From Escherichia coli (GTDB lineage: Bacteria > Pseudomonadota > Gammaproteobacteria > Enterobacterales > Enterobacteriaceae): a stretch of DNA of 64,000 nucleotides. The position numbers were made by a program, and so were the translations under genes. Below are positions 94-31,142 of this stretch, in pieces. Positions within the stretch are counted from its first letter, which is position 1; every line of letters starts with the position of its first letter. The notes below the pieces were generated by a model. That model saw only the letters and a program-made list of their open reading frames with translations, did not search any database and was not told where the DNA came from. The stretch is from the NCBI RefSeq assembly GCF_003790525.1, contig NZ_CP033635.1; one strand, given 5' to 3'.

Positions 94-917
94 TGTACTT
101 CTCCATGCCAGGGCGTCAGACGGCGCTGTAACGCGCGCAAACCCAGTTCTAAAAGAAAGGCGATAATCGCAATCACCGCGATCCCCGCCAGCACCACGTC
201 AGTCGCGAGAAATTCACCCGCTGACTGAACCATAAATCCTAAACCGCGCGTCGCGGCAATCAGCTCCGCCGCTACCAGCGTAGACCAGCCCACACCCAGA
301 CCAATGCGTAATCCGGTGAGGATTTCCGGCAGCGCGCCGGGCAAAATGACAAACCACAGCACCTGCGCACGGCTGGCACCCAGCGACTGGGCGGCACGAA
401 TGCGAACCTGCTGCGCGCTTTTCACCCCCGCCAGCGCCGACATCGCTACCGGGGCAAAAATCGCTAAATAGATCAGTAAGATCTTCGAAGTTTCACCAAT
501 ACCAAACCAGATCACCATCAGCGGCAAATAAGCCAGCGGCGGCACCGGACGATAAAGCTCGATTATCGGATCCAGAATGCCGCGCACCGTCGGGCTTAGT
601 CCCATGGCGATCCCGACCGGAATGCCGATCAACACCGCCGCGAGTAGCGCCAGCAAAATGCGCGTCAGGCTGGCTGCCAGATGCTGCCACAGCGTGGCGT
701 CCATAAATCCCTGCGGTCCGGCAATGGTGAGCAGTTTTGCCAGTACCTGTTGCGGTGGCGGCAAAAACAGCGGGCTAATCAGTTGCAGCGCCGCGACTGC
801 CCACCATACAGTGAGCAAAACCGCTAACGTACCAATGCTTAAGGTCACCTGACGCGAGAGCGGCCAGCGCCATTTCAGCCGATGCGAATGCAGTTTTTCA
901 TTAATGAGCACACTCAT
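90..917 (-). CDS. tauC: taurine ABC transporter permease
   Basis: 275-aa hydrophobic ORF; position in tauABCD order; 4-nt overlap with tauB. Confidence 0.9.
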
Positions 918-1681
918 GAGAATGCCTCCCGTTGCTCAAATACGCGGCTTAAAACATATTCGCGCATGGCGATGAATTGTGGATCGGACTTGATGCTGCG
1001 GCTCGGTTCCCCGGCAACAAAGCGGCGAGCAAAGTTGAGCGGCAGCCGCTCCAGCACGCGGCCAGGGCCGGATGAAAGCAGAACCAGTTCAGTCGCCATA
1101 AACACCGCTTCTTCTATATCGTGGGTAATCAACAGCACCTGCTTGCCCGTCTCCTGCCAGAGTTTCAGCAGCAGGGTTTGCATCTGATCGCGGGTGAAGG
1201 CGTCCAGCGCGCCAAACGGTTCGTCGAGTAATAACAGCTGGGGATTCGCCGCCAGCGCGCGGGTAATCCCCACCCGCTGACGTTGACCGCCGGAAAGCTG
1301 CCAGATGTAGCGTTTTTCCGCCCCTTCCAGGCCGACTTTTTTCAGCATCTGGTGCGCGATTTCCAGTCGCTGCATTTTCTCTACGCCTGCCAGTTGCAGG
1401 CCGAATGCCACGTTGTCCTGTACATTGCGCCACGGTAGTAGCCCTTCATTCTGAAAAACTACGCCACGCTCTGCTCCCGGTCCCTCAATACGCTTACCCG
1501 CCAGTTGAATGCTGCCATGCTGATAAGGCACAAAACCGGCAATCAGATTCAGCAAGGTGGTTTTGCCGCAGCCAGACGGTCCCAGAACCACCAGAAGCTC
1601 GCCGCTTTCCAGCGTCAGGTTGATATCTTCCAGTGCCGGTTTGCCGCCATAATCGGCGTAAAGATGAGAGATTTGCAGCAT
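914..1681 (-). CDS. tauB: taurine ABC transporter ATP-binding protein
   Basis: Walker [13 protein letters not shown] signature LSGGQRQR, Walker B LLLDEPF in 255-aa ORF. Confidence 0.92.
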
Positions 1682-1694
1682 CTGCTGCCTCCTT

Positions 1695-2657
1695 TTATTG
1701 CACGAAGCGCGAGGTCACGTACTGGCTGTAATCATTCGCCACGGCAGGGACTTTACCCTGATCTTTCAAAAACTGCGCGGTATCGATGATCGCTTTATTC
1801 ACCGGTCCGGTCAGTTCTGCCGTTTGTTGCTGCGGCGTCAGATAGGTATTCCCCTTCACCAGCCCCGGAACGTCACCTTCAGGCACGCCGCTTAACCGCG
1901 CCAGTTTGCTGATGTTTTCCGGCTGTTTCAGCCACGCGTCTGGGTTAGCAATGTACGGTTGCTGAGCATCGATGGCGCTTTTAGCGAACGCTTTCACGAC
2001 CTCAGGATGTTTCTCGGCAAAATCTTTGCGCACTACCCAGACATCCAGCGTCGGCGCACCCCACTGCCCGACCTGTTCAGAATCGGTCAGCACCTTGCCG
2101 TCTTTTTCCAGGGCGTTAACCGCCGGTGCCCAGACATAAGCACCATCAATGTCTCCCCGCTGCCATGCAGCGATAATCGCGGGCGGCTGCAGGTTCACAA
2201 TCTCCACTTGCCCGGGTTTAATACCCCAGTGTTTCAGCGCCGCCAGCAGGCTGTAGTGGGTGGTGGAGATAAACGGTACGGCGATGCGCTTGCCAATCAG
2301 ATCTTCCGGTTTGCTGATAGTTTTCTTTACCACCAGCGCTTCGGAGTTACCCAGTTTTGACGCCAGCAAGAAGACTTCAATCGGCACCTGTTGGCTGGTT
2401 GCAACCGCTAACGGGCTGGAACCGAGGTTGCCGATTTGCACGTCGCCTGAAGCCAGCGCCCGCACGATGCTGGCTCCGCTGTCAAACTTACGCCAGTCCA
2501 CGGTTGCTCCGCTTTCTTTAGCAAAGGTGTTGTCGGCCTGAGCCACTTTCGCCGGTTCGGCGGAGGTTTGATACGCCACGGTGACGTTCACCGCCTGCGC
2601 CTGAAAAGCGATGAATGCCAGTGCGGCAAGAAGTGTGTTACGCGATGAAATTGCCAT
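1695..2657 (-). CDS. tauA: taurine ABC transporter periplasmic binding protein
   Basis: ORF 1695-2714; likely start at internal ATG giving signal peptide [22 protein letters not shown] and 320 aa. Confidence 0.85.
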
Positions 2658-3272
2658 GATTGTCTGCTCCCCTGTCTTGTTATGGGAGCAGTATTCAGGA
2701 ATAAAAACATTCATTAAAAGAATTAGTCGTTATCGCACAGATGATTTTATTCTTAGCAAAAAAACGGCAAAGGAAAGATTAAATATGCAATTACTCCGTT
2801 CTAACAATTGGGAAAATTACTACACTTCATTTTAGTGATGCATAAACAACCACATTACGAGATTTATTACTTCATTATTTCTATCAATATCAATACATAT
2901 AATAAAACTATTATATTCGCATTGTATATATCACTGTATCATTCTCAATCACTCGCATATTACATTCACATAATGTATATAAACAATACTTGTTCACAGA
3001 ACATATTTTTTAAATGCAATTAATTGACAAACTAAATCACATCTAAATACAATGTATAAAACAAAATAACTATACATACCAAACATACAAACACTTAACA
3101 TATGAATTGCATAAAAACATTACCCAGTCGAACCTCCGGGTCTGAAAGCCCTTGCTTTTCAGTTATTAGCAACATTTAACATTTATAAATTAACATCTGG
3201 CTGCGCCAGAGATTACGTCTCTGAGTGCATCGTTGTGCTTGTAGTATAATAAATAAAATGGAGTGTCATTAA

Positions 3273-6948: not shown

Positions 6949-8088
<1,140 letters not shown>

Positions 8089-8179: not shown

Positions 8180-9013
8180 ATGGAACTCATTGAAAAACAT
8201 GCCAGCTTTGGCGGCTGGCAAAATGTGTATCGGCATTATTCCCAATCACTGAAATGTGAAATGAATGTCGGCGTCTATCTCCCACCAAAAGCCGGGAATG
8301 AAAAATTACCGGTGCTGTACTGGCTTTCGGGCCTGACCTGCAACGAGCAGAATTTCATTACTAAATCGGGGATGCAGCGTTACGCGGCTGAGCACAACAT
8401 TATTGTTGTTGCGCCGGACACCAGTCCGCGAGGCAGTCATGTCGCAGATGCCGACCGTTACGATCTCGGGCAAGGTGCCGGGTTTTACCTGAACGCAACG
8501 CAAGCGCCGTGGAATGAACATTACAAAATGTATGATTATATCCACAACGAGCTGCCGGATTTAGTGATGCAACATTTTCCGGCAACGACCAGAAAGTCTA
8601 TCTCAGGTCATTCTATGGGCGGACTGGGCGCGCTGGTGCTGGCGTTACGTAATCCAGATGAATATGTCAGCGTCTCGGCATTTTCGCCCATTGTCTCCCC
8701 ATCGCAAGTACCGTGGGGACAGCAAGCCTTTGCCGCATATCTTGGTGAAAATAAAGAGGCCTGGTTGGATTACGATCCGGTGAGCCTTATTTCACAAGGT
8801 CAACGCGTTGCGGAAATCATGGTTGATCAGGGGTTGAGTGATGATTTTTACGCAGAACAGCTGCGGACTCCAAATCTTGAAAAGATCTGCCAGGAGATGA
8901 ATATCAAGACGTTAATCCGTTATCACGAGGGTTATGATCACAGCTATTATTTTGTCTCCAGTTTTATTGGCGAGCATATTGCGTACCACGCCAATAAACT
9001 GAATATGCGTTAA
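8180..9013 (+). CDS. frmB: S-formylglutathione hydrolase (esterase D family)
   Basis: 277 aa; GHSMGG nucleophile elbow. Confidence 0.9.
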   Translation: MELIEKHASFGGWQNVYRHYSQSLKCEMNVGVYLPPKAGNEKLPVLYWLSGLTCNEQNFITKSGMQRYAAEHNIIVVAPDTSPRGSHVADADRYDLGQGAGFYLNATQAPWNEHYKMYDYIHNELPDLVMQHFPATTRKSISGHSMGGLGALVLALRNPDEYVSVSAFSPIVSPSQVPWGQQAFAAYLGENKEAWLDYDPVSLISQGQRVAEIMVDQGLSDDFYAEQLRTPNLEKICQEMNIKTLIRYHEGYDHSYYFVSSFIGEHIAYHANKLNMR

Positions 9014-9021
9014 TAATAGTG

Positions 9022-9126
9022 CACGACTGCCGGATGCGGCGTGAACGCCTTATCCGCCTACATTTCGCCTGGAAACCGTAGGCATGATAAGACTCGCAAA
9101 GCGTCGCATCAGGCATCTGCACACGA
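9022..9126. repeat. REP/BIME-type palindromic unit cluster
   Basis: gccggatgcggcgtgaacgccttatccgcctac followed by gcgtcgcatcaggcatctgcacacg. Confidence 0.6.
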
Positions 9127-9137
9127 TTTATCTATGT

Positions 9138-9677
9138 TTACCACATCAAATCATCAGGCACTTTGAAGTCAGCATACGGATCGTCTTCATCCTGCTCTTC
9201 GGCGCTGAGCGCGCTGTGCAACGCAATACTGCTGGCATCACGCTGAGCAATTTTATCGGCAACGCTGGCGGGAATAATGGCGTATTCACCCTCACTATTG
9301 TTATCGACCAACAAGCGGGCAATCGCCAGACGACCATTAATCAACTGCGTTTGCGTGAGCTTATCGACAAAAATCTTCTTAATCAGATTGCCGTCAGTGA
9401 AGTTAAAACCAATATCGCCATTGGCAATGGTAATTCGGTTCATTTCAATGAGCTGCTTCACCTGGGCTTTATATTCTTTCGCCAACGCCGCTTGTTTTTG
9501 TTGTTCGCTAAGCTGTTTATCACGCTCAAGCTGTGCCTTTTTATTTTCTTCTACCGCCGCCCGAGCTTCACGCGCCTGAACGCGCGATTTTTTCGCCGTT
9601 CTCTCGACCTTCGCCGCTTTTTTGCTGGTGACTAATCCTGCTTTGAGCAACTGCTCTTGTAAGGTAAGTTTTGCCAT
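9138..9677 (-). CDS. yaiL: DUF2058-family protein
   Basis: ORF 9138-9794; internal start MAKLTLQEQLLK gives 179 aa; lysine/glutamine-rich low-complexity N-terminal half. Confidence 0.7.
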   Translation of the reverse strand: MAKLTLQEQLLKAGLVTSKKAAKVERTAKKSRVQAREARAAVEENKKAQLERDKQLSEQQKQAALAKEYKAQVKQLIEMNRITIANGDIGFNFTDGNLIKKIFVDKLTQTQLINGRLAIARLLVDNNSEGEYAIIPASVADKIAQRDASSIALHSALSAEEQDEDDPYADFKVPDDLMW

Positions 9678-9769
9678 CTTTGTTTCCAAACCCGCTGAAT
9701 AATTTTTAGCGAGTATACCTGTAAACGCCGTAGGTGTATTGGGGGGAAGTCCCTTTCGCCCCTGCTTAA

Positions 9770-9802
9770 TAAGGCGCGTCAGGCATCTGCACACGGCTGC
9801 AT
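9770..9802. repeat. REP-like palindromic unit overlapping the mhpT stop
   Basis: gcgcgtcaggcatctgcacacggctgcat, near-copy of the unit at 9101-9125; encodes the mhpT C-terminus MQPCADA on the minus strand. Confidence 0.5.
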
Positions 9803-10990
9803 TCGTGATCTCCGGCTCATCAAAATAAACACTGCCAGGCCGGCAACAAGAATACCCGGCGCAGAAGCGGCCATTACGCCAACCGTGCCAGTGCCTAATG
9901 CCAGCATTTTCCCGGCCAGTAACGGACCGCTCATAGCCCCCAGACGCCCTACCGCCACGGCTGTTCCCACACCTGTTGCGCGGATCTGCGAACTGTAAAA
10001 CAACGGTGCCAGGGCATACAAAACGCTTTGCCCACCTGTCGCAAACAACCCCGCGACGAATCCCGCCAGCAACATACCGTTAAATGACGACACCGTTCCC
10101 AGCGCCAGCAGCGAAGCTAACATGCCGCTATAAATCAGTAGCGACATGGTTACTGGACGCAGCTTATCCATCAATGCGCCCAACATTAACGTCCCGCTTG
10201 CCGCCCCCATTTGCAGTGCAAACATCACCCCTGCCGCCTGCGATGGCTGGAATCCTTGCTCCACCAAAAGCAGCGGTAGCCAGTTGATCAACATGTAGAC
10301 CACCAGCAGAGTGAAGAAATAACACAACCACAGCAGCAGCGTCGCGGTAGCCGTTTCTGGCGCAAATAACGCACGCAGTGGTGGCGCGGCCTGTTTTTCG
10401 CCAGCGAACACCGCCGACTCCGGCAGCCAGCGCATTAACAGCGGCACCAGAATCAACGGCACCACACCACCTACCCAAAACACCGTTTGCCATGCTAAGT
10501 TTGCCCCCGCGAAACCCAGTGTCGCCGCCAGCGCCGCGCCAATGGGAACACCGCAATACATCAGGCTCACTGCCGTCCCACGAAAACGTGGACCCGCGGC
10601 TTCAGACGTCAGGGCGATCAGATTCGGCAACGCCGCCCCCAGCCCGACACCGGTCATCAGCCGCGCAAAGACCAGTGAGGGGAAATCCCAGGCAATCGCC
10701 GTTGCCAGTGAGAACAAACCAAACAGCGCAACTGAGCCAATCAAAATGCGCTTGCGACCATAACGGTCCGCCAGCATCCCGCCAACCAGCGCGCCGGGTA
10801 GCAAACCGAGTATTCCGGCGCTGAATATCCAGCCCATTTGCATTTTATCGAGTGCAAAAGCCTGGGCGATGCCACCCGCCGCAATGCCAGCCGCCTGAAG
10901 ATCCAGCCCTTCCATCAGAGCGACCAAAAAACAAAGCCCGATGGTCAGCATCAGGCGGGATGAAGATGATGAAGGGGTACGAGTCGACAT
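9779..10990 (-). CDS. mhpT: 3-hydroxyphenylpropionate MFS transporter
   Basis: ORF 9779-11059 trimmed to MSTRTPSSS start (403 aa); 12-TM MFS-like hydrophobicity. Confidence 0.85.
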   Translation of the reverse strand: MSTRTPSSSSSRLMLTIGLCFLVALMEGLDLQAAGIAAGGIAQAFALDKMQMGWIFSAGILGLLPGALVGGMLADRYGRKRILIGSVALFGLFSLATAIAWDFPSLVFARLMTGVGLGAALPNLIALTSEAAGPRFRGTAVSLMYCGVPIGAALAATLGFAGANLAWQTVFWVGGVVPLILVPLLMRWLPESAVFAGEKQAAPPLRALFAPETATATLLLWLCYFFTLLVVYMLINWLPLLLVEQGFQPSQAAGVMFALQMGAASGTLMLGALMDKLRPVTMSLLIYSGMLASLLALGTVSSFNGMLLAGFVAGLFATGGQSVLYALAPLFYSSQIRATGVGTAVAVGRLGAMSGPLLAGKMLALGTGTVGVMAASAPGILVAGLAVFILMSRRSRMQPCADA

Positions 10991-11065
10991 AAGATGAACC
11001 TCGTTGCGAGTGCAGGTGAGTCGCGGCTGATACATTGCCAGCCGCGTAATCAGAACCATTTAATG

Positions 11066-11125
11066 ACTGCCTACGGGCGAAATATAGGCCGGACAAGACG
11101 TTTACGCCGCATCCGGCAGTCGTGC
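11066..11125. repeat. REP palindromic unit
   Basis: ggccggacaagacgtttacgccgcatccggcagtcgtg between mhpT and mhpE. Confidence 0.55.
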
Positions 11126-11165
11126 TGGGATGGGCATACAAAATGCACGTTCTCGGCAGTCATCA

Positions 11166-12175
11166 TTATTTGTTGTTGCGCAGATCCAGCGCCACGTCGA
11201 CGATCATATCCTCCTGGCCGCCAACCATCCGGCGTTTGCCCAACTCAACGAGAATATCCACCGCGCTTAAGCCATAACGCGCCGCCGCCGTTTCACAGTG
11301 ACGCAGGAAGCTGGAGTAAACACCGGCGTATCCCAGCGCCAGCGTTTCGCGATCGACTCGTACCGGACGATCCTGCAACGGACGCACCAGGTCGTCAGCG
11401 GCATCCATTAACGCATAGAGATCGGTCCCATGCTGCCAACCCAGTTTATCCGCGGCGGCAATAAACACTTCCAGCGGCGCGTTACCTGCGCCCGCGCCCA
11501 TTCCCGCGAGACTGGCATCGATTCGGTCGCAGCCCTCTTCCACCGCCGCGATAGAGTTCGCCACGCCAAGACTCAGGTTATGGTGAGCGTGTATGCCGGT
11601 TTGCGTTTCTGGTTTCAGCACTGCTTTCAGGGCGCGGAAACGGTCACGGATATCGCTCATGTTCATCGCACCGCCAGAATCCACCACATAAATACAGGTC
11701 GCACCGTAGCCTTCCATCAGCTTTGCCTGCTTTGCGAGATTCTCCGGCGTGGTCATATGGCTCATCATCAGAAAGCCAACGGTGTCCATTCCGAGCTCGC
11801 GGGCATACTGAATATGCTGGGCGGAAACATCAGCTTCGGTACAGTGCGTAGCCACACGAACCACCCGCGCGCCAGCCTGCCAGGCATTTTTCAGATCGTG
11901 AATAGTGCCGATTCCAGGCAGCAACAACGTCGCGATTTTGGCGTGCTTCACCACATCCGCCGCCGCTTCAATCCATTCAAGGTCGCTATGTGCGCCGAAA
12001 CCATAGTTAAAGCTGGAACCTTGCAAACCGTCGCCGTGGGCCACTTCAATCGAATCCACGCGGGCATCGTCCAGTGCTTTGGCAACCTGGCGAACGTTTT
12101 CCAATGAATACTGATGACGAATGGCGTGCATACCATCACGCAACGTGACGTCCGAGATATAAAGTTTTTTATCGT

Positions 12176-12179
<4 letters not shown>
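11166..12179 (-). CDS. mhpE: 4-hydroxy-2-oxovalerate aldolase
   Basis: 337 aa, DRE_TIM/HMGL-like N-terminus [14 protein letters not shown]; operon position. Confidence 0.9.
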
Positions 12180-17626: not shown

Positions 17627-18460
17627 ATGCAGAACAATGAGCAGACGGAATACAAAACCGTGCGCGGCTTAACCCGCGGTCTAATGTTATTAAATATGTT
17701 AAATAAACTTGACGGCGGTGCCAGCGTCGGGCTGCTGGCGGAACTCAGCGGCCTGCATCGCACCACTGTGCGGCGACTGCTGGAGACGCTGCAGGAAGAG
17801 GGATATGTCCGGCGTAGTCCCTCCGATGATAGTTTCCGTTTGACCATCAAAGTGCGGCAATTAAGCGAAGGATTTCGTGACGAACAGTGGATTTCTGCAC
17901 TGGCTGCCCCACTGCTGGGCGATCTGTTGCGCGAAGTGGTATGGCCGACAGATGTGTCCACGCTGGATGTTGATGCAATGGTGGTACGCGAAACCACCCA
18001 TCGTTTCAGCCGATTATCCTTTCACCGGGCAATGGTCGGGCGACGGTTACCGCTTCTGAAAACCGCCTCGGGCCTGACCTGGCTGGCCTTTTGCCCGGAA
18101 CAAGAACGCAAGGAATTAATCGAGATGTTAGCCTCCCGCCCCGGTGATGACTATCAACTGGCACGAGAACCGTTAAAGCTGGAAGCCATTCTGGCGCGCG
18201 CGCGCAAAGAGGGGTACGGACAGAACTACCGCGGCTGGGATCAGGAGGAGAAGATCGCCTCTATCGCCGTACCGCTGCGCAGTGAACAACGGGTGATTGG
18301 CTGTCTGAATCTGGTGTATATGGCGAGCGCAATGACCATCGAACAGGCAGCGGAAAAGCATCTTCCGGCGCTGCAACGGGTGGCAAAACAGATCGAAGAA
18401 GGGGTTGAATCGCAGGCTATTCTGGTAGCGGGAAGGCGAAGCGGCGTGCATTTACGCTGA
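17627..18460 (+). CDS. mhpR: IclR-family transcriptional activator of mhp operon
   Basis: ORF 17615-18460; start at MQNNEQTEYKTVRGL gives 277 aa; N-terminal wHTH and C-terminal IclR effector domain pattern. Confidence 0.88.
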   Translation: MQNNEQTEYKTVRGLTRGLMLLNMLNKLDGGASVGLLAELSGLHRTTVRRLLETLQEEGYVRRSPSDDSFRLTIKVRQLSEGFRDEQWISALAAPLLGDLLREVVWPTDVSTLDVDAMVVRETTHRFSRLSFHRAMVGRRLPLLKTASGLTWLAFCPEQERKELIEMLASRPGDDYQLAREPLKLEAILARARKEGYGQNYRGWDQEEKIASIAVPLRSEQRVIGCLNLVYMASAMTIEQAAEKHLPALQRVAKQIEEGVESQAILVAGRRSGVHLR

Positions 18461-18536
18461 CACCATCGAATGGCGCAAAACCTTTCGTGGTATGGCATGA
18501 TAGCGCCCGGAAGAGAGTCAATTCAGGGTGGTGAAT

Positions 18537-31059: not shown

Positions 31060-31142
31060 GTAGGCATAATAAGACGCGGTAAGCGTCGCATCAGGCATCG
31101 GCGCATGGTGTCGGATGCGCCAGGCGACGCATCCGACAATAA
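31060..31142. repeat. REP/BIME cluster between prpE stop and codB promoter
   Basis: gtaggcataataagacgcggtaagcgtcgcatcaggcatcggcgcatggtgtcggatgcgccaggcgacgcatccgaca; related to units at 9079-9125 and 24816-24848. Confidence 0.6.

Follow-up and report, generated by a model that had tools for sequence, protein, structure and literature searches.

A decayed BIME-2 fragment as the likely source of the last codons and stop codon of mhpT in Escherichia coli

The REP sequences (PU) of E. coli are organized in BIMEs, of which BIME-2 consists of y and z2 motifs joined by a short S linker and arranged in tandem, with a copy number that varies between strains (Gilson, Bachellier and Hofnung; Ton-Hoang et al., 2012, PMC3333891). 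Pairs of inverted REPs are considered the likely mobile unit of REPIN/RAYT systems (Bertels and Rainey, 2011, PMC3116915; Nunvar et al., 2010, PMC2817692). Other repeats contribute to proteins. Intergenic repeats that end chromosomal genes, by providing their final codons and stop, are reviewed in PMC3184786, namely enterobacterial small mobile sequences (Delihas, 2007) and the pneumococcal BOX, RUP and SPRITE elements. The same review cites the Rickettsia palindromic elements (RPE; Ogata et al., 2000), in which palindromic repeat DNA is translated. At the locus described here, a fragment of the first of these families lies at the 3' end of mhpT. With a probability of roughly 0.78, the last five to six codons of the gene and its stop derive from a decayed REP/BIME-2 fragment, an ordinary by-product of a known repeat family.

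The window, i.e., the whole stretch of DNA analysed (64,000 nucleotides of contig NZ_CP033635.1), is 100% identical to E. coli SMS-3-5 (NC_010498.1). Its gene order is frmA, frmB and then, on the minus strand, yaiL, mhpT and mhpE (Table 1). The putative -10 element of yaiL aligns with a TATAAT upstream of E. fergusonii yaiL, at the point where nucleotide homology starts; a promoter scan called no promoter, this candidate included. The small stem-loop past the mhpT stop codon was seen in both RNA folds covering the site and is conserved across Escherichia apart from minor changes.

Table 1. Features around mhpT and yaiL (window coordinates)
Feature	Position	Strand	Basis
frmB/fghA	8180-9013	+	annotation
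Y-type REP, 11 nt past the frmB stop codon, head GCCGGATGCGGCGT	9024-9062	+	head pattern, K-12 BIME alignment
Tail-to-tail linker between Y and Z2 REPs	9063-9077	.	aligns with K-12 yaiL-frmB BIME
Z2-type REP downstream of yaiL, head GCCTGATGCGACGC, tail CTTATCATGCCTAC	9078-9114	-	pattern matches, K-12 alignment
BIME-2 short head-to-head S linker CGTGTGCAGAT, 11 nt, in copy B of the direct repeat	9115-9125	-	
yaiL, DUF2058 protein, 179 aa	9138-9677	-	RefSeq annotation, ORF list, Pfam PF09831 on homologues
Probable yaiL promoter (inferred): -35 AATACA, 17-nt spacer, -10 TATACT	9712-9740	-	
Small G+C stem-loop GGGGCGAAAGGGACTTCCCC, 17 nt past the mhpT stop codon, without U tract	9743-9762	-	
BIME-derived relic (copy A), 26 nt, GCAGCCGTGTGCAGATGCCTGACGCG	9775-9800	-	23/26 vs K-12 BIME-2 unit
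mhpT, 3-(3-hydroxyphenyl)propionate transporter, MFS protein, 403 aa	9779-10990	-	RefSeq annotation, 40 related loci
REP tail fragment CTGCCTAC and tail-to-tail linker, remnant of a collapsed BIME array	11066-11089	-	
Y-type REP, mhpE-mhpT spacer	11090-11125	-	inverted repeat, head pattern, K-12 alignment
mhpE	11166-12179	-	annotation

The spacers that border mhpT and yaiL, three in all, carry ordinary members of the REP/BIME-2 family, comprising Y and Z2 units with short linkers. Downstream of yaiL, the Y and Z2 REPs pair as one BIME unit, and the stretch that contains it (9010-9137) collapses into a single long hairpin when folded (-50.5 kcal/mol, z = -4.2). The S linker beside it is an orphan, with no Y REP on its other side. 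The two Y REPs of the region, which are extragenic in that they lie within intergenic spacers, constitute a 36-nt inverted repeat (I1) with 92% complementarity. Both match the Y head consensus GCCGGATGCGGCG exactly (9029-9042 and 11104-11117), and their tails (CTTATCCGCCTAC and CTTGTCCGGCCTAT) carry one or two changes each relative to ...CTTATCCGGCCTAC, with its GTAG/CTAC tetranucleotide. Both also qualify as imperfect palindromes of 30-40 nt, as their stem is recovered when 11060-11165 and 9010-9137 are folded. The earlier note on this DNA had listed 9024-9062 and the whole of 11066-11125 as REPs; the former is genuine, but in the latter only 11090-11125 is a REP. The remainder can be aligned with the final unit of the array found in K-12 and forms an inverted repeat (I7) with 9056-9069.

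In K-12, the mhpE-mhpT spacer holds a 4.5-unit tandem BIME-2 array with five Y and four Z2 copies, compared with the single Y REP seen here; within that array, the S linker joins Y and Z2 heads four times, with the head-to-head junction GGCAGTCGTGCGCAGATGCCTGATGCGACGC. Among the E. coli strains compared, this spacer contains from one to five Y heads and the yaiL-frmB spacer one or two units. The element at 9024-9125, like the arrays that K-12 has at these loci, therefore belongs to BIME-2 as it is defined, by inverse Y and Z2 REPs, short linkers and variable tandem copies. REPs occur at six loci within the 64-kb window, and the REPs contained in a 2.4-kb query from this region brought its matches to a median of 13 places per genome. 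When 8800-11400 was searched against Rfam, both Y REPs gave sub-threshold matches to the naRNA4/REP325 covariance model, and no other RNA family was found.

The relic at the mhpT end belongs to the same family. Three pieces make it up: a Y-head flank of 4 nt (GCAG), the S linker CCGTGTGCAGAT and a 10-nt portion of Z-REP head, GCCTGACGCG. Compared with the unit repeated in tandem in the mhpE-mhpT BIME-2 array of K-12, it matches at 23 of 26 positions, a score reached by none of 2000 shuffles. Its head agrees with the Z head consensus GCCTGATGCG at 9/10 positions, and in the divergent Escherichia 'SCPM' it is GCCTGATGCG itself (10/10). On the minus strand, the relic encodes MhpT residues Q398-A403 and the stop, with the MQPCADA codons at 9782-9802 and the TGA at 9779-9781. 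The earlier proposal that a repeat supplies the last MhpT residues and the TGA is thus supported, the family being a dispersed one. K-12 and SMS-3-5 differ at five positions over about 37 nt of the relic, against about 3% overall.

What the mhpT end lacks is the remainder of a REP. Comparison of the post-stop sequence with a REP 3' arm was not significant, 479-523 of 5000 shuffles scoring equally (p about 0.1), and the relic folds no better than shuffled sequence (z = -0.11 over 63 nt, -1.5 over 111 nt). The CTAC/GTAG that marks the foot of the palindrome is absent as well; AGGGG follows CTTATTAAGC, and the nearest CCTAC is ~45 nt further. By position, too, the relic is not extragenic, as 22 of its 26 matching nucleotides lie inside the mhpT CDS, stop codon counted. 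A complete, degenerate REP at this site was considered on the basis of Z2-like and Z1-like alignments and rejected, since the post-stop part alone was not significant. As read from its sequence, the site is a fossil linker plus REP head and not a palindromic unit, and a complete REP may never have existed there. The two strings that the earlier note took for palindromic units have to be redefined accordingly. The first, gcgtcgcatcaggcatctgcacacg, lies exactly where it was placed, at 9101-9125, but comprises one arm, the head, of the Z2 REP (9078-9114) and the 11-nt linker. The second, gcgcgtcaggcatctgcacacgg, is present at 9774-9796, 4-5 nt from the 9778-9801 originally given, and comprises linker and 10 nt of REP head, without a significant 3' arm.

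The four Escherichia species that the scan recovered all keep the relic, and their MhpT ends ...SR[RK]SR[MI]QPC[AT]DA*; the scan result does not include E. albertii, E. fergusonii, E. marmotae or E. ruysiae. Outside the genus, tblastn homology to MhpT stops at residue 396-397 of 403 in most loci (40 mhpT loci), and the tail beyond that point is unlike between genera, i.e., Citrobacter, Klebsiella and about ten others. Citrobacter proteins end ...SRKSQ[MI]x[VI]x[AT][SN][GD]x*, and the tails of Klebsiella, Raoultella, Kluyvera, Enterobacter, Pluralibacter and Pseudocitrobacter all differ. This is the comparison across enterobacteria that had been suggested as a check, and it revealed no mhpT 3' end conserved in species that lack the REP. 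Citrobacter tails (e.g., IQVQASDS*) can be aligned loosely to IQPC-ADA*, while nucleotide identity to Citrobacter in the QPCADA codons is near random. The boundary between native and element-derived sequence, placed at codon 397/398, is approximate, and the element-derived part may bear some resemblance to the native tail. Within Escherichia, changes in the relic codons fall mostly on the third base (tgt/tgc; gca/gcc/gct), the pattern that translation would produce.

We propose that, in an ancestor of those Escherichia with the order mhpT-yaiL-frmB, a BIME-2 fragment comprising Y-head flank, S linker and Z-REP head joined the mhpT 3' end. It would have replaced the last native codons, such that codons 398-403 (QPCADA) and the stop would now be element-derived, the new stop being the TGA within the REP head consensus. 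The REP 3' arm would have decayed afterwards, leaving a site that no longer forms a hairpin, and the coding part of the relic would drift like other weakly constrained codons. The replacement was probably neutral, because MhpT, an MFS transporter, has a cytoplasmic C-terminal tail that changes from genus to genus. No "empty", pre-capture mhpT end was found inside the Escherichia genomes compared, so the direction of capture is deduced from outgroups only. Sequence identity, the family of the intact REPs, the point where homology between genera breaks and the absence of folding are direct observations, whereas the capture's direction, timing and neutrality are deductions.

The relic (copy A) is linked to the BIME downstream of yaiL (copy B) by an exact minus-strand 17-mer, CGTGTGCAGATGCCTGA, which occurs at 9109-9125 and 9779-9795. 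The copies lie 670 nt apart in direct orientation with yaiL between them, as the earlier note had observed, and agree over 21 nt except at one position (9105-9125 and 9775-9795). Matches to the 17-mer with up to three mismatches are expected 0.22 times in 64 kb, and three such matches were reached in none of 100 shuffles; a third linker-plus-Z2 copy is found in the window at 31083-31107. Identity over 17/17 positions is confined to SMS-3-5 among 11 mhp-carrying E. coli/Escherichia genomes, the others having 15-16/17 or a different linker. Concerted evolution of the flanking copies was considered in the same 11 genomes and gave no clear signal, position 5 being concordant in six and discordant in four. 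Some weak hints of exchange can be listed: in SMS-3-5 copy A equals copy B, whereas most strains differ at one or two positions; the relic diverges between K-12 and SMS-3-5; and the consensus breaks off 3 nt 3' of a TnpA(REP) cleavage site.

If the fossil reading is true, CGTGYGCAGATGCCTGA should also be present at unrelated BIMEs, beyond the surroundings of mhpT and yaiL, and the S-linker/Z-head junction (CGTGYGCMGATGCCTGA) at many of them. The junction was found at a median of four separate places per genome and at up to 19 (5181 genomes), with 7-11 among the records listed. Given that the best match of this search was the mhpE-mhpT array itself, the evidence for copies elsewhere consists of the place counts and the copy at 31083-31107. 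The 17-21-nt repeat around yaiL is thus likely to reflect the presence, in both spacers, of pieces of one dispersed element, and not a scar of yaiL insertion.

The strongest alternative, though an unlikely one, is that yaiL arrived on a segment inserted into a BIME behind mhpT, through REP-REP homologous recombination or a TnpA(REP) reaction, and that the S-linker/Z-head piece was thereby duplicated on both sides. The direct orientation of the copies fits such an event. So does the position of yaiL beside mhpT and frmB, which is specific to Escherichia; in E. fergusonii the gene follows yjbB (78.8% nucleotide identity) and in Serratia it adjoins an rluF-like gene, and at these places it retains only 79-81% identity. 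Its G+C content is about 46-47%, below the 56-62% of mhpT. Furthermore, TnpA(REP) cleaves z-type iREPs in vitro between TGCC and TGAT and can recombine BIME pieces (PMC3333891), and the mhpT end departs from the REP consensus 3 nt 3' of this cleavage site (with C for T as the fourth base, TGAC vs TGAT). However, repeats duplicated by an insertion should abut the insert and be present in all carriers. One copy lies 101 nt upstream of the yaiL start codon and the other 12 nt past its stop, and the segment homologous between E. coli and E. fergusonii (9140-9718) is separated from them by unrelated sequence, 56 nt on one side and 12-15 nt on the other. In E. whittamii and 'SCPM', the left flank of the post-yaiL REP differs (tgcactgat; tcactgatgaatt), although the order mhpT-yaiL-frmB is unchanged. 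The full match is strain-specific, and a junction that occurs at several unrelated places per genome requires no special event to be found at two neighbouring ones. Since REPs occupy six loci of the window, their presence on both sides of a gene does not mark an insertion, and the earlier suggestion that they identify yaiL as inserted is not upheld.

Synteny and base composition, as evidence separate from the repeats, do show that this is a mosaic region. These data would be compatible with either yaiL or the mhp cluster as the moved-in segment, and do not say which. Outside Escherichia, mhpT was never found beside frm in the 40 mhpT loci, and none of these loci represented an empty site (mhpT-BIME-frmB without yaiL). 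Strains that lack mhp (M16807, Nissle 1917; 487 of 5426 genomes) were considered as the ancestral empty site, with the relic as part of an inserted mhp module, and this was rejected. In strain 95-3192, the MBL-hydrolase and GlxA-regulator genes that lie between mhpR and lacI are intact, from which it follows that the mhp-less state derives from a ~10 kb deletion, extending from inside the GlxA gene to window position 9742, and is therefore uninformative on the order of events. The deletion leaves the putative yaiL promoter in place.

Still less probable is continuing exchange between the BIME pieces that flank yaiL, by gene conversion or TnpA(REP), which would rewrite the MhpT end at times and would have placed yaiL by the same reaction.

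That a REP still regulates mhpT from its stop codon, by a hairpin that would stall ribosomes or protect the 3' end of the mRNA and so tune the level of MhpT, is improbable to a slightly greater degree. REPs near stop codons reportedly lower translation (Liang, Rudd and Deutscher, 2015), which would suit this proposal. REPs are in addition known 3'-UTR regulators (bioRxiv 10.64898/2026.03.23.713779), and conservation across Escherichia extends to both the relic and the neighbouring G+C stem-loop. Against this, the relic folds no better than shuffled sequence (z = -0.11), has neither a demonstrable 3' arm nor a CTAC tail, and was not called by the terminator scan at 9775-9800; conservation over 22 of 26 nt is already explained by the mhpT frame (given as 21 coding bases and one stop-codon base). 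A full-text literature search on REPs at stop codons returned nothing useful. Finally, coincidence, with QPCADA a native, vertically inherited end that merely resembles a BIME, is very improbable despite the loose Citrobacter alignment (IQVQASDS vs IQPC-ADA), given a 23/26 match to a dispersed repeat that no shuffle equalled, an exact 17-mer 670 nt away where 0.22 matches are expected even with three mismatches, and near-random Citrobacter identity in the same codons.

Origin of the mhpT end from a decayed BIME-2 fragment would make the locus a clean, dated case in which a protein's dispensable C-terminal tail took up a piece of non-coding repeat and received its stop codon from it. The fragment is common to the four scan-recovered Escherichia species and is lacking in Citrobacter and in genera farther removed. 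The TGA inside GCCTGATGCG can evidently act as a ready-made terminator. For annotation, the case warns that REP/BIME fragments can sit within annotated CDSs, and that a gene located between REPs provides no evidence of insertion. The capture itself matters little and has no bearing on the open questions of REP function or mobility.

Compared with described systems, the elements at 9024-9125 and 11066-11125 show no difference from E. coli BIME-2. They share its inverse Y and Z2 REPs with short linkers, its placement at gene 3' ends and between convergent genes, its strain-variable tandem number (here 1 vs 4.5 units in the mhpE-mhpT spacer and 1 vs 2 in the yaiL-frmB spacer) and the insertion of IS621 into a REP in some strains (PMC3333891). 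The stretch 9775-9800 does differ, as it is a linker plus head, intragenic and non-palindromic. The BIME after yaiL is like a REPIN in forming one long hairpin, with no sign of recent mobility, and the sole link of RAYT/TnpA(REP) to the mhpT end is the motif at its stop codon, TGAC in place of the TGAT of the in vitro site (PMC3333891). As in the 3'-fused repeats reviewed in PMC3184786, an intergenic repeat gives the last codons and the stop; however, mhpT gains five to six codons only, from a fossil fragment that replaced the tail at similar length without extending it. RPEs, as cited there, are likewise translated palindromic repeat DNA, but are whole internal in-frame insertions of 100-150 bp, whereas in mhpT a short fragment replaces the terminal tail.

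The 3' end of mhpT is best read as a BIME-2 fragment that was passively captured by the gene (probability about 0.78). The earlier note had proposed such a capture from sequence shared across yaiL; the shared sequence is real and the coding capture is supported with refinements, while the claim that the repeats mark yaiL as inserted finds no support in them. The window is 100% identical to E. coli SMS-3-5 (NC_010498.1), in reversed orientation relative to the K-12 map, and the RefSeq annotation and ORF list agree on its gene calls. The yaiL frame stays open 5'-ward to a GTG at 9794 (9677-9794, minus strand); the resulting ORF of 218 aa, which runs over the putatively captured piece and the final mhpT codons, is probably an artefact of annotation. 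In E. fergusonii, the yaiL annotation (197 aa) has a similar 18-aa N-terminal extension.

Genes and repeat parts around yaiL and mhpT (window coordinates)
Feature	Coordinates	Strand	Basis or remark
frmA	6979-8088	+	RefSeq + ORF list
frmB/fghA	8180-9013	+	RefSeq + ORF list
Z2 REP, whole unit	9078-9114		9101-9114 part is its head arm
S linker, 11 nt	9115-9125		K-12 comparison
yaiL, DUF2058, 179 aa	9138-9677	-	RefSeq + ORF list
mhpT, 403 aa	9779-10990	-	RefSeq + ORF list
mhpE	11166-12179	-	RefSeq + ORF list

The REPs at 9024-9062 and 11090-11125 are genuine and Y-type: both have exact heads (GCCGGATGCGGCGT), together they form a 36-nt inverted repeat, and both weakly match the REP325-derived Rfam family naRNA4. 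The mhpE-mhpT spacer is ~400 bp longer in K-12 than in SMS-3-5 (alignment gap of 404 nt), the extra DNA belonging to a tandem array of 4.5 units of ~100 bp in the order Y REP, tail-to-tail linker, inverted Z2 REP and short head-to-head linker (...GCATCAGGCATCTGCGCACGACTGCCGGATGCGG...). This is the textbook layout of BIME-2, in which y and z2 units with a short S linker form tandem copies of strain-variable number (PMC3333891). The stretch at 9101-9125, described earlier as a palindromic unit, is therefore a Z2 head arm plus S linker. With the Y REP at 9024-9062 they make up the one BIME unit of the yaiL-frmB spacer (K-12 has two), which folds into a long hairpin (-50.5 kcal/mol; z = -4.2, RNA fold against shuffles). 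The elements at 9024-9125 and 11066-11125 show every defining feature of REP/BIME-2. Around the sole Y REP of the mhpE-mhpT spacer lies an 11-bp inverted repeat (UGAUGACUGCC ... GGCAGUCAUUA; 11060-11165, minus strand; -39.5 kcal/mol, z = -3.55), which looks like a collapsed remnant of the K-12 array. In the E. whittamii representative, frmB is truncated (locus record L006 5853-6140, only residues 4-67 matching), and the truncation point is also where the Y REP of the yaiL-frmB BIME is cut.

The S-linker/Z-head junction is dispersed. A 32-nt probe across it, applied to 5181 E. coli genomes, matches at separate places numbering 4 per genome at the median and 19 at most. A third linker-plus-Z2 copy lies in the window at an unrelated locus (31083-31107), within a BIME-like unit (31060-31140, minus strand) made up in turn of a Y-like palindrome (GTCGGATGCGTCGCCTGGCGCATCCGAC), the linker (CATGCGCCGAT) and a Z2 REP; this is an independent instance of the junction. 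REPs occur at six loci in the 64-kb window, so two close pieces of one family are unremarkable. REPs are also hot spots for IS621 insertion (PMC1525189), and E. coli PEC122 provides an instance of this target preference: IS621 (IS110 family; L051 480-1760) sits inside the Z2 REP tail of the yaiL-frmB BIME (…TATCAGGCCT | IS621 | …CTACGG; window equivalent near 9078-9082), an insertion shared by MSHS 472.

Across yaiL, a repeat finder detects a direct repeat of 21 nt whose copies (9105-9125 and 9775-9795) differ at one position, within which CGTGTGCAGATGCCTGA occurs twice exactly on the minus strand (9109-9125 and 9779-9795); 0.22 matches with up to three mismatches are expected in the window. 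Of the two strings quoted earlier, the first lies at 9101-9125 as given, the second at 9774-9796, 4-5 nt from its former coordinates. That these copies are an insertion joint made when yaiL arrived is unlikely, since the repeats do not abut the homologous segment, the flank of the frmB-side copy varies, and exact identity is confined to SMS-3-5 among the genomes compared. The yaiL genes of E. coli and E. fergusonii are homologous in nucleotides over 9718-9140, from a -10-like TATACT/TATAAT through the stop codon, a segment separated by 56 nt from the mhpT-side copy and by 12-15 nt from the other. The Z REP 3' of yaiL is preceded not by the S linker but by tgcactgat in E. whittamii and tcactgatgaatt in the divergent strain SCPM-O-B-8794, with gene order unchanged. 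Among 11 mhp-carrying genomes the copies are 17-nt identical only in SMS-3-5, the others differing at one or two positions, and no clear co-variation of their variable sites was found.

Evidence separate from the repeats indicates that the region is a mosaic, though it does not give the order in which segments arrived. Only in Escherichia does yaiL adjoin mhpT. In E. fergusonii it follows yjbB near metH (L044 4001-4594), in Serratia it lies beside an rluF-like gene (L048 4001-4540), and the K-12 yjbB-pepE-rluF locus has no yaiL. The G+C content is ~46-47% in yaiL, 56-62% in mhpT and ~50% in frm. Because E. coli yaiL is no closer by nucleotides to E. fergusonii (78.8%; metH 95.7%, yjbB 84.5%) than to Serratia (81%), sequence comparison suggests horizontal replacement or relocation of yaiL within Escherichia.

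The mhpT TGA (9779-9781) and M-Q-P-C-A-D-A codons (9782-9802) are placed as the earlier note said. The captured piece, encoding Q398-A403 and the stop, consists of the S linker with 4 nt of Y-head flank on one side and 10 nt of Z-REP head on the other; the TGA of the REP-head consensus is the stop codon. The post-stop sequence (CGCGCCTTATTAAGCAGG...) resembles a shortened REP 3' arm (CGCG.CTTAT.A.GC); taken alone this similarity is not significant, ~10% of shuffles equalling its score. The CTAC foot is absent, and the RNA fold is no better than that of shuffled sequence (z = -0.11). The piece is thus a BIME fragment or fossil and falls short of the definition of a REP; as it matches the head consensus and is neither palindromic, CTAC-bearing nor extragenic, 'BIME-derived' is the proper name for it. 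That a regulatory hairpin still works at the stop codon is improbable. A small G+C stem-loop (GGGGCGAAAGGGACTTCCCC; 9743-9762, minus strand), 17 nt 3' of the stop and without a U tract, is conserved, apart from small differences, throughout the Escherichia examined and might stabilise the 3' end. Coincidental likeness to BIME is the least probable reading: in a local alignment, GCAGCCGTGTGCAGATGCCTGACGCG at the mhpT end and GCAGTCGTGCGCAGATGCCTGATGCG of the K-12 BIME-2 unit agree at 23 of 26 positions (9775-9800), a score reached by 0 of 2000 shuffles.

One scan of species-representative genomes yielded 40 mhpT loci. The Escherichia species among them, four in number (E. coli, Escherichia sp. 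E1V33, E. whittamii and the divergent 'E. coli' SCPM-O-B-8794), all keep the piece, MhpT ending in ...SR[RK]SR[MI]QPC[AT]DA*. The Citrobacter freundii group ends in ...SRKSQ[MI]x[VI]x[AT][SN][GD]x*, and C. sedlakii, Klebsiella, Raoultella, Kluyvera, Enterobacter, Pluralibacter, Pseudocitrobacter, Pseudomonas and Azomonas each have a further distinct tail. Tblastn homology to E. coli MhpT stops at residue 396-397 of 403 in most non-Escherichia loci; no conserved mhpT 3' end, which would have told against capture, is seen in species that lack the element. Several other genera have palindromic repeats of their own lying a few bases 3' of the stop; only in Escherichia does the repeat reach into the reading frame. 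Within Escherichia, the codons of the piece vary mainly at third positions (tgt/tgc; gca/gcc/gct), and two residues change (one Ala-to-Thr, one Met/Ile), as would be expected of a translated, weakly constrained tail. A contig labelled 'MAG: Clostridiales bacterium' (SFGO01000113.1, L004), with mhpE and mhpT 99-100% identical to E. coli, is almost certainly mis-binned Escherichia. Frameshifts in mhpT and mhpE of Kluyvera genomosp. 3 (L039 2876-5198) and an mhpT divided between two ORFs in a single Escherichia assembly (GCA_041363725.1, L046 2689-3899) point to occasional pseudogenisation of the pathway.

Of the complete E. coli genomes, numbering 5426, some 9% (487, Nissle 1917 among them) lack the whole mhp cluster; in these, yaiL abuts a GlxA-family regulator fragment beside lacI (junction at 9742). 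The missing segment runs from inside that regulator gene to 37 nt 3' of the mhpT stop (9742 to ~18467; M16807, L050 4381-4512) and leaves the putative yaiL promoter. Genes for an MBL-fold hydrolase and the GlxA regulator, present in some strains, are missing from SMS-3-5 and K-12 (~18400-18470). Both are intact between mhpR and lacI in 95-3192 (L052 4350-6099), which rules out an ancestral empty site; the mhp-less state is hence a derived deletion, uninformative on the origin of the captured piece.

Under passive capture, an ancestor of those Escherichia species that carry mhp would have had a BIME-2 fragment joined to the 3' end of mhpT. About six native codons would have given way to five or six from the element together with the REP-head TGA, and the palindrome of the fragment would have been lost later. 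Small repeats fused to the 3' ends of genes have been described before (review PMC3184786), and the mhpT end is a new instance of this known type of event, found in the best-studied bacterium and in its best-studied repeat family.
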